DNA of 63,478 bases, counting the filler, from Basidioascus undulatus (Eukaryota), in the NCBI GenBank assembly GCA_000826855.1. It is 13 parts of 13 records of this genome, joined end to end, with 100 filler letters (N's around TTAATTAATTAA, not from the genome) between each part and the next. Parts side by side here need not be neighbours in the genome. Positions count along the whole stretch, not along the records: positions 1 to 4,828 come from JTLS01002061.1; 12 more parts are not named here. One strand, written 5' to 3'. Position 1 is the first letter of the stretch, and every line of letters begins with the position of its first letter. The notes beneath the pieces are model-generated. The model made no database searches, had not been told where the DNA came from, and saw only the letters and a list, made by a program, of their open reading frames with translations. The position numbers and the translations under genes are program-made. Below are positions 1 through 504 of this stretch, piece by piece.

Positions 1-63
1 TGCAGGTTCGATCCCTGCGTCGGTCATGGCCGGCTGGCTCAATGGTAGAGTATCTGACTACGA
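1..63 (+). tRNA. tRNA-Arg: tRNA-Arg(ACG) halves in reversed order (3' part 1-26, 5' half 28-63); candidate permuted gene or partial tandem duplicate
   Basis: 1-26 = T-arm GCAGG-TTCGATC-CCTGC plus acceptor strand GTCGGTC-A. 28-63 = GGCCGGC-TG-GCTC-AATGGTA-GAGT-A-TCTGA-CT-ACG-A. The acceptor strands pair 7/7 (2 G-U). TTTTT follows at 65-69. Confidence 0.85.
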
Positions 64-504
64 CTTTTTGCTCCCCCTGCTTTTTGTTACCTTTTACAAT
101 GCAGACGCCGGGGAACCTGGACGTCCCGATTTCTACACACACTCACACACACACTCATCCCCGGTCGACACGTAGAAGCACCGAAATTGTGAAGATGGCA
201 CCAAACAGGCGACTAGAATGGCGAAGCGGTGGGTCGACATTGTGCCTGGTCCCAGCTGTACTAGTTTGCACACAGCGTCCTTGCCTTGAAGGAAGAAAGA
301 ATGCAGCATATAGCTGATCTCGATAATGAATGTTTATCGCAGAACTTCCGGTAAGTATTTGCCTGTTGTGCACCCGCACAAGGCAGCTGGTGCGCAGCGC
401 TGCATTTCTACCCAGTCAGACTGTCCAACACACTGTAGCTCTCATGAACGTTCGCATCTCATGCGTAATCCCCCATCTTACACGCGACGAGACTTTCGTA
501 CCGC

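Follow-up and report, generated by a model that had tools for sequence, protein, structure and literature searches.

Short interspersed elements (SINEs) built solely from tRNA-like units, or from a pair of tRNA-related ones, are reportedly represented by the colugo t-SINE/CYN family, and the 'Twin' SINE of Culex is said to have derived from a dimeric tRNA precursor. The consulted part of the SINEBase description defines a SINE as a short (<1 kb), interspersed, non-tandem repeat present in at least about 100 copies per genome, with an identity of 60% or more to a tRNA across no fewer than 60 nt, which is transcribed by Pol III using a promoter that lies within it and reverse-transcribed by a partner LINE, as target-site duplications and a tail would show; private indels or substitutions, or a body, separate such elements from tRNA pseudogenes (PMC3531059). 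For fungi, the consulted part of PMC5063351 lists tRNA-Arg-related SINEs in Aspergillus, AfuSINE2, and Mg-SINE with about 100 copies.

Circularly permuted tRNA genes have been described from Cyanidioschyzon, prasinophyte green algae, the Bigelowiella nucleomorph and Thermofilum pendens; according to the sections consulted, their intervening sequence measures 1-74 nt and the 37/38 junction predominates (PMC3978253). Dimeric tRNA genes are exemplified, in the portion of PMC9362929 consulted, by tRNA-Ser-tRNA-iMet of S. pombe and tRNA-Arg-tRNA-Asp of S. cerevisiae. Finally, template switching by the reverse transcriptase of a LINE fuses transcripts directly into chimeric retrogenes in Magnaporthe; as far as the part consulted describes them, these chimeras carry a LINE 3' fragment at their end and are flanked by direct repeats of 12-14 bp (PMC2104539).

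The locus considered here lies at the very beginning of a 63,478-nt stretch of DNA from the fungus Basidioascus undulatus (GCA_000826855.1), hereafter the window. Like tRNA-derived SINEs, for which tRNA-Arg is a common source, the repeat to which it belongs is dispersed, multi-copy, tRNA-derived and apparently short, contains A-box-like and B-box-like motifs and at least one unit with a private indel not expected in the cellular tRNA, has a Pol III terminator at its end and also occurs in data that resemble RNA. It differs from them in that the copies seen have neither a tRNA-unrelated body nor the A-rich or simple-repeat tail typical of SINEs, in its 3' module, which is a precise tRNA 5' half reaching to nt 37, and in its single-T joints. 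Fungal tRNA-derived SINEs, including tRNA-Arg-related ones, being already known from the part of PMC5063351 consulted, it is the all-tRNA architecture that is unusual.

Reversed tRNA-Arg pieces at the edge of a contig

The window is composed of 13 separate contigs of 4767-4828 bases each, joined by 12 spacers of the form N44-TTAATTAATTAA-N44 (24 runs of 44 N), and the tRNA-Arg pieces open contig 1 (1-4828), beginning with its first base. Three public runs, designated X1, X2 and X3, contain positions 1-3000, and their Logan contigs were aligned to positions 1-1500. X1 and X2, each comprising ~35 Mb of contigs, may be the source of the assembly and are therefore not independent of it; X3 is from the same sample as X2, and none of the three is listed as RNA. 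Counts based on the contigs of these runs are lower bounds (22 of the 86 aligned records are listed). The features are as follows.

Positions 1-18, + strand: nt 48 and the T-arm, recognised by sequence inspection as the 3' part of an upstream tRNA-Arg-like unit cut by the contig edge; nt 48 is position 1, the T-stem is formed by 2-6 and 14-18 (GCAGG/CCTGC) and the T-loop by 7-13 (TTCGATC)
Positions 5-15, + strand: B-box-like GGTTCGATCCC inside the T-arm part
Positions 19-25, + strand: 3' acceptor strand GTCGGTC (nt 66-72)
Position 26, + strand: discriminator A73
Position 27, + strand: single-T spacer at the head-to-tail junction
Positions 28-63, + strand: 5' half of tRNA-Arg(ACG), nt 1-37, with the 5' acceptor strand GGCCGGC at 28-34, U8 and G9 at 35-36, the D-arm at 37-51, A26 of the tRNA at 52, the 5' strand of the anticodon stem at 53-57 and the loop CU-ACG-A at 58-63 (anticodon ACG, 60-62)
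Positions 35-45, + strand: A-box-like TGGCTCAATGG
Positions 64-69, + strand: C64 followed by T5 (65-69), which resembles a Pol III terminator and marks where the repeat ends on its 3' side
Positions 70-4828: unique flank and remainder of contig 1, at a single-copy depth of 19 (X1) and 59.9 (X2) from 101 on
Positions ~642-1141, - strand: candidate expressed gene with a 61-nt GT..AG intron (731-791), skipped in an X3 contig
Positions 4829-4928: artificial spacer N44-TTAATTAATTAA-N44, the first of 12, the last being at 58605-58704

The arrangement had been recognised in an earlier note, and its description of the T-arm and 3' acceptor strand placed ahead of the 5' half, with one T between them, agrees with the sequence base for base; the termination of the 5' half at nt 37, followed by C and T5, can likewise be read directly. 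The seven acceptor pairs that it had claimed are all present (19-25 versus 28-34), five being Watson-Crick and two G.U. Its observation that no T-run follows the discriminator also holds: position A26 is succeeded by T-GGCC and the first T-run comes only after nt 37, the intervening sequence between A73 and G1 being one T, without promoter or terminator. By comparison, the tRNAs called by ARAGORN on the other contigs have a T-run ~2-6 nt past the discriminator in all six cases, often as CTTTTT. There would therefore be nothing at junction 27 to stop Pol III between units, and a 3' boundary that coincides with the T-run is compatible with the end being set by a transcript of Pol III. A second T5 run, located at 81-85 in the unique flank, 12 bases past the first, could serve as a back-up Pol III terminator.

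The reference for sequence comparison was a metagenome contig (L001) from an AT-rich organism, the sole match to a 20-mer of the 5' half, on which ARAGORN calls a conventional tRNA-Arg(ACG). The 5' half is identical to this gene at 31 of 36 positions, with nt 10-37 fully identical and all differences confined to nt 2-9, and the 3' part (1-26) at 19 of 26, 62 nt being compared in all. When 28-63 was rejoined to 1-26 through ATCAGGGGGT, the ten letters found upstream in a run contig, ARAGORN called the product tRNA-Arg(acg), so that the pieces belong to one tRNA type and do not represent a chance likeness. The presence of tRNA-Arg pieces in reversed order is real and far beyond chance.

As laid out in the genome, positions 1-69 received no call from either ARAGORN or the Rfam tRNA model. 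The lone Rfam match there is a sub-threshold one to YrlA (26 bits against a gathering score of 69), which arises because the order runs T-arm, acceptor, D-arm. Folded alone, 1-69 is no better than its shuffles (z = -0.08), the T-arm hairpin being the sole stable element. Two other ways to account for tRNA-like sequence at this place were considered and rejected: a primer-binding site of an LTR retrotransposon on the minus strand, for want of a TGG before the tRNA complement, and a giant intron splitting the tRNA, there being no 3' half in 4.8 kb.

Copy number, dispersal and upstream context

Over positions 1-50 the summed contig depth reaches 2042 in X1 and 6461 in X2, against single-copy values of 19 and 59.9, and over 51-100 it is 1340 and 4256; these figures correspond to approximately 107-fold the single-copy depth for the former interval and imply ~175-fold for 51-70, as copy numbers that are approximate, derived as they are from summed k-mer depth of Logan contigs and made more uncertain by the several units per copy. 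Positions 1-27 appear less abundant than 28-70, a difference which our preferred model does not explain. The junction itself is spanned in X1 by two short contigs (56 and 53 nt) with depths of 175 and 298, where single copy is 19, and it is also found in matching high-depth contigs of X2 and in X3. Its recurrence in two DNA runs of differing depth and in a third run indicates that the arrangement is real and tells against the option of a misassembly, for which the earlier note had expected no reads across 20-40.

In each DNA run, at least 13 other contigs share the 5' half and then diverge in their flanks, 12 of them inside or just past the T-run. Among the 39 aligned X1 contigs, the 13 in question leave the window sequence after position 63 (1), 68 (1), 69 (6), 70 (3) or 71 (2), and the agreement among their diverging flanks is 0.47-0.68, near random; the X2 pattern is alike. 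Single-copy contigs of 4220, 3014, 1818 and 1235 nt bear one copy each. The longest of them includes all of 1-69, with 6 differences, and 13 extra bases upstream; given these differences, it represents a second, diverged and independent locus of the same layout. The repeat is thus interspersed, at no fewer than 14 loci with unlike 3' flanks, and the terminal 5'-half module is common to all copies seen. We conclude that positions 1-70 are part of a repeat with many copies and not a single gene. An rDNA or organelle source of the high depth was rejected, the copies being situated on single-copy contigs. Within the window, which samples just 13 contigs, no further copies of the repeat were found, and a search of metagenome contigs for its junction, using the pattern CTGCGTCGGTCA-N(0-12)-GGCCGGCTGGCT, returned 0 matches.

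The sequence that precedes the T-arm was seen in X3. Cover of the unique part of contig 1 by this run is limited to 601-1150, and one of its contigs skips 731-791 (GT..AG, minus strand); from this exon-like, patchy cover and the single skip we take X3, with reserve, to be a cDNA-like run. Its record 17 (93 nt, at a depth of 32.7 versus ~4 for the neighbouring gene) is the sole one of six X3 records to cover positions 1-18, and it reads as window 19-48 with one difference, then TTGAGATCAGGGGGT, then window 1-48 without difference. Read upstream from the T-arm, the record thus gives first ATCAGGGGGT (nt 38-47) and TTGAG, next the D-arm and 5' acceptor strand of a tRNA-like unit, and then a T and another 3' acceptor strand, so that a further junction, ...GTCGGTCA-T-GGCC..., lies ahead of the upstream unit. 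This unit is 62 nt long, has its anticodon arm replaced by TTGAG and gets no tRNA call from ARAGORN. The two 30-nt repeats of record 17 differ by one letter, which points to a tandem encoded in the DNA and argues against rolling-circle copying of a circular RNA. The order of elements in the record thus places the units head to tail, without a unique leader; this tandem arrangement is taken from one contig of one run, the source of which may be a locus other than the window's own. No contig bridging two junctions is present among the records listed for the DNA runs X1 and X2.

The further X3 records correspond to window 19-63 (record 18, depth 60.7) and to 34-70 and 34-68 (records 19 and 20), the latter two continuing for 660-840 nt into other flanks. 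If X3 is indeed RNA-like, these three records point to copies carried at other loci within RNAs of greater length. X3 cover is zero from 71 to 600, over the flank of the window's own copy.

Explanations of the tRNA-Arg repeat

Positions 1-69 probably belong to a dispersed, SINE-like multimer that derives from tRNA-Arg(ACG) and ends at a Pol III terminator, and form the 3' end of one of its copies. The repeat as such likely consists of tRNA-Arg(ACG)-like units, joined head to tail via a single T and always ending in nt 1-37, C and a T-run. A head-to-tail array with a truncated last copy was the second of the two options offered in the earlier note; it proved essentially right, and is the one we favour, but understated the case, since the family is spread across 14 or more loci. 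The large number of copies, their unrelated flanks, the abrupt 3' end and a private indel together give the repeat the look of a tRNA-derived SINE by the SINEBase criteria. The private indel is that of the anticodon-less unit of record 17, and the identity to conventional tRNA-Arg(ACG) given above lies above the SINEBase value. Units within one copy are tandem, while the copies are interspersed. As to transcription, the A-box-like and B-box-like motifs and the T5 run are present, and junction-bearing contigs occur in the RNA-like X3.

According to the mechanism that we propose, the A and B boxes of the upstream unit or units would direct the start of Pol III, which would read through the A73-U-G1 junction, where no T-run occurs, and terminate in the T5 that follows nt 37. 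The predicted product is a tRNA-like RNA of ~100 nt or longer, whose 3' end would be a module of 5'-tRNA-half-like sequence. Reverse transcription of such transcripts, in the manner of SINEs, would account for the spread, and we infer that the element was retroposed in this way. The A73-T-G1 joints could stem from a dimeric precursor, or from template switching of a reverse transcriptase with addition of one untemplated base. Template switching is suggested by analogy with the Magnaporthe chimeras, in which copies of different or identical transcripts are likewise fused head to tail in a fungal genome; the T of the joint would then be the untemplated nucleotide. The assembler, for its part, may have broken the contig at the ambiguous repeat, giving it the look of a lone permuted gene.

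A different view, unlikely though deserving of consideration, is that working tRNA-Arg(ACG) genes are co-transcribed as head-to-tail units and released by RNase P and RNase Z, the truncated last copy merely bearing the terminator; the many loci would then be the ordinary family of Arg(ACG) genes, homogenised by gene conversion. In fungi, Arg(ACG) is usually encoded in multiple copies. The missing T-run between A73 and G1, present after the discriminator in six of six other tRNA calls, is in line with this view, as are the acceptance of the rejoined halves by ARAGORN and the canonical 5' half with its complete identity to a conventional gene over nt 10-37. One-transcript dimeric tRNA genes are moreover known in S. 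pombe and S. cerevisiae, as described in the consulted part of PMC9362929. These yeast genes resemble the present repeat in having two tRNA units in succession, no terminator between them and a fungal host. The two tRNAs of each yeast gene are complete and differ from one another, and several nucleotides separate them, whereas here the units are alike, the joint is 1 nt and the last unit is a 5' half only. Two complete tandem tRNAs, which characterise a dimeric tRNA gene, are not what is found: the downstream unit comprises nt 1-37 only, and the upstream unit seen in record 17 has no anticodon arm. Against co-transcribed working genes stand also the ~107-175-fold excess in depth, which is well above the copy number usual for one isoacceptor in a ~35 Mb genome, the fact that the only upstream unit seen, being without an anticodon arm, is not a tRNA, and the identical truncation at nt 37 at 14 or more loci, which would not be expected from independent decay.

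A true circularly permuted tRNA-Arg(ACG) gene, or a family of such genes, was the first option of the earlier note, and we consider it very improbable. The transcript would consist of a leader, nt 38-73, U, nt 1-37 and a trailer, and it would mature through cleavage by the splicing endonuclease at 37/38, circularisation, and reopening by RNase P and RNase Z at the acceptor end. The succession of 3' part, short spacer, 5' half to nt 37 and T-run is the published permuted layout; the absence of a terminator between the parts and the break at 37/38 are further points of likeness to the genes covered in the consulted sections of PMC3978253. The halves pair 7/7 at the acceptor stem, and two other tRNAs of the window seem, by eye, to have introns after nt 37, in which case the splicing machinery is probably in use. 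The 3' half does lie upstream with an intervening sequence of 1 nt, and T5 (65-69) does follow the 5' half; but nt 38 is preceded by a tRNA-like unit in record 17, the window itself beginning only at nt 48. The prediction of the earlier note was a non-tRNA leader ahead of nt 38; in its place record 17 displays TTGAG together with D-arm and 5' acceptor sequence, beyond which comes another junction. An intact 5' half upstream, which the note had named as grounds for abandoning the permuted option, was found in part: tRNA 5' acceptor and D-arm sequence is there, but in a unit that lacks the anticodon arm and hence is not an intact gene. In addition, the trailer left after a stop at T5 would be C and a few U, of insufficient length for a bulge-helix-bulge helix except with an A-rich leader, and the family (~107-175-fold depth) is far more abundant than a tRNA gene set. 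The consulted sections of the 2014 review report permuted tRNA genes from algae and one archaeon alone (PMC3978253), and our search of the non-subscription literature for fungal ones found none. In sum, the tRNA-like unit in place of a leader, the many copies with unrelated flanks and the fungal lineage all set the repeat apart from the permuted genes, and the many-copy nature of the sequence, the contig edge and the lack of a unique leader in record 17 tell against a permuted gene with a 37/38 junction. Positions 1-69 are probably not a circularly permuted tRNA gene.

There is nonetheless a resemblance between the layout of the repeat and the 'tandem duplicate with lost outer segments' that figures as an intermediate in models for the origin of permuted genes, as well as to the reverse-transcription models, as presented in the portion of PMC3978253 consulted. 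It is conceivable, at a very low probability, that head-to-tail or permuted units supply the fungus with part of its tRNA-Arg(ACG), or the whole of it, or with a family of tRNA-like RNAs devoid of anticodons, and that their transcripts mature by cutting and rejoining via a permuted or circular intermediate, the genomic family having arisen from reverse-transcribed permuted or circularised tRNAs. If true, fungi would thereby gain their first permuted-tRNA system, and the reverse-transcription origin model, in the form given in the part of the review consulted (PMC3978253), would have a living example. An artefact of assembly or library, that is a chimeric join of tRNA fragments at the end of a draft contig, is suggested by the position at the first base of a 4.8-kb contig, in an assembly with untrimmed adapter and homopolymer-ended contigs, but is extremely unlikely: the junction occurs in high-depth contigs of two DNA runs and in a third run, as well as inside a 4220-nt single-copy contig with 6 differences, and a rare chimera would not attain 9-16 times the single-copy depth.

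A permuted tRNA gene in a fungus would be remarkable, and its appearance here most likely reflects a repeat truncated where the contig begins. In practice, a tRNA that looks permuted and occupies the first base of a draft contig should have its copy number and upstream sequence checked before one accepts it. There remains an abundant repeat of a fungus, composed of tRNA-Arg modules only, namely a unit devoid of an anticodon arm, a joint of one base and a 5' half that stops at nt 37 beside a Pol III terminator. Searches of the literature on permuted tRNA in fungi, basidiomycete tRNA-Arg SINEs and tRNA head-to-tail joints, with subscription papers outside their scope, gave no description of such an element. 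Should it prove to be a SINE, the small number of SINEs described from fungi would be joined by one with an unusual all-tRNA architecture.

Contig setting and other tRNA genes of the window

The statement of the earlier note that no matching 3' half lies downstream stands for the 4.8 kb of contig 1, within which no tRNA 3' half was found downstream of 1-69; beyond that point it falls, since the remaining sequence belongs to other contigs. More generally, because the spacers join unrelated contigs, long-range statements on synteny, on the absence of something downstream or on tRNA clustering are invalid across the joints. The assembly is a fragmented, rough short-read draft, with one contig tail bearing an Illumina adapter start and several contigs ending in homopolymers. 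The tail in question is that of the eighth contig (39073-39085) and ends in AGATCGGAAGAGC, which we take to be the start of the Illumina adapter; its presence at a contig tail implies that reads were incompletely trimmed before assembly. Homopolymers of G or C are found at contig ends or starts, for instance at 24408-24419, 29423-29432 and 58705-58720.

Pfam matches were obtained for 6 of the 150 ORFs of the window, in short exons, with GH18, adh_short, ribosomal S9/S16 and Pmp3 among them, a picture compatible with a fungus rich in introns. None of the seven ORFs of at least 120 aa on contig 1 past position 70 had a Pfam match. The skipped intron and the X3 cover described above suggest a spliced, expressed gene ~570 bases from the repeat (642-1141, minus strand), the ORFs of which match nothing in Pfam and in which splicing brings no gain in open frame (173 versus 223 aa).

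Among the other tRNA genes are two identical tRNA-Leu(AAG), at 9851-9931 (minus strand) and 12341-12421 (plus strand), which are inverted and 2.4 kb apart on one contig. The former is 12 bases from the contig start, making it another case of a contig break at a tRNA gene. At 12854-12931 (plus strand), ARAGORN reports a tRNA-like gene with a 4-base anticodon (gcca), below the Rfam gathering score and followed by T5 and T7 runs; on visual inspection its sequence resembles a tRNA-Gly(GCC) interrupted after nt 37 by a very short intron. A 93-nt tRNA at 26431-26523 (plus strand), with an Rfam score of 51 bits and an odd anticodon call from ARAGORN, appears, again by eye, to be a tRNA-Ser(AGA) with an intron after nt 37, which would mean that introns at the canonical position are seemingly in use in this genome.
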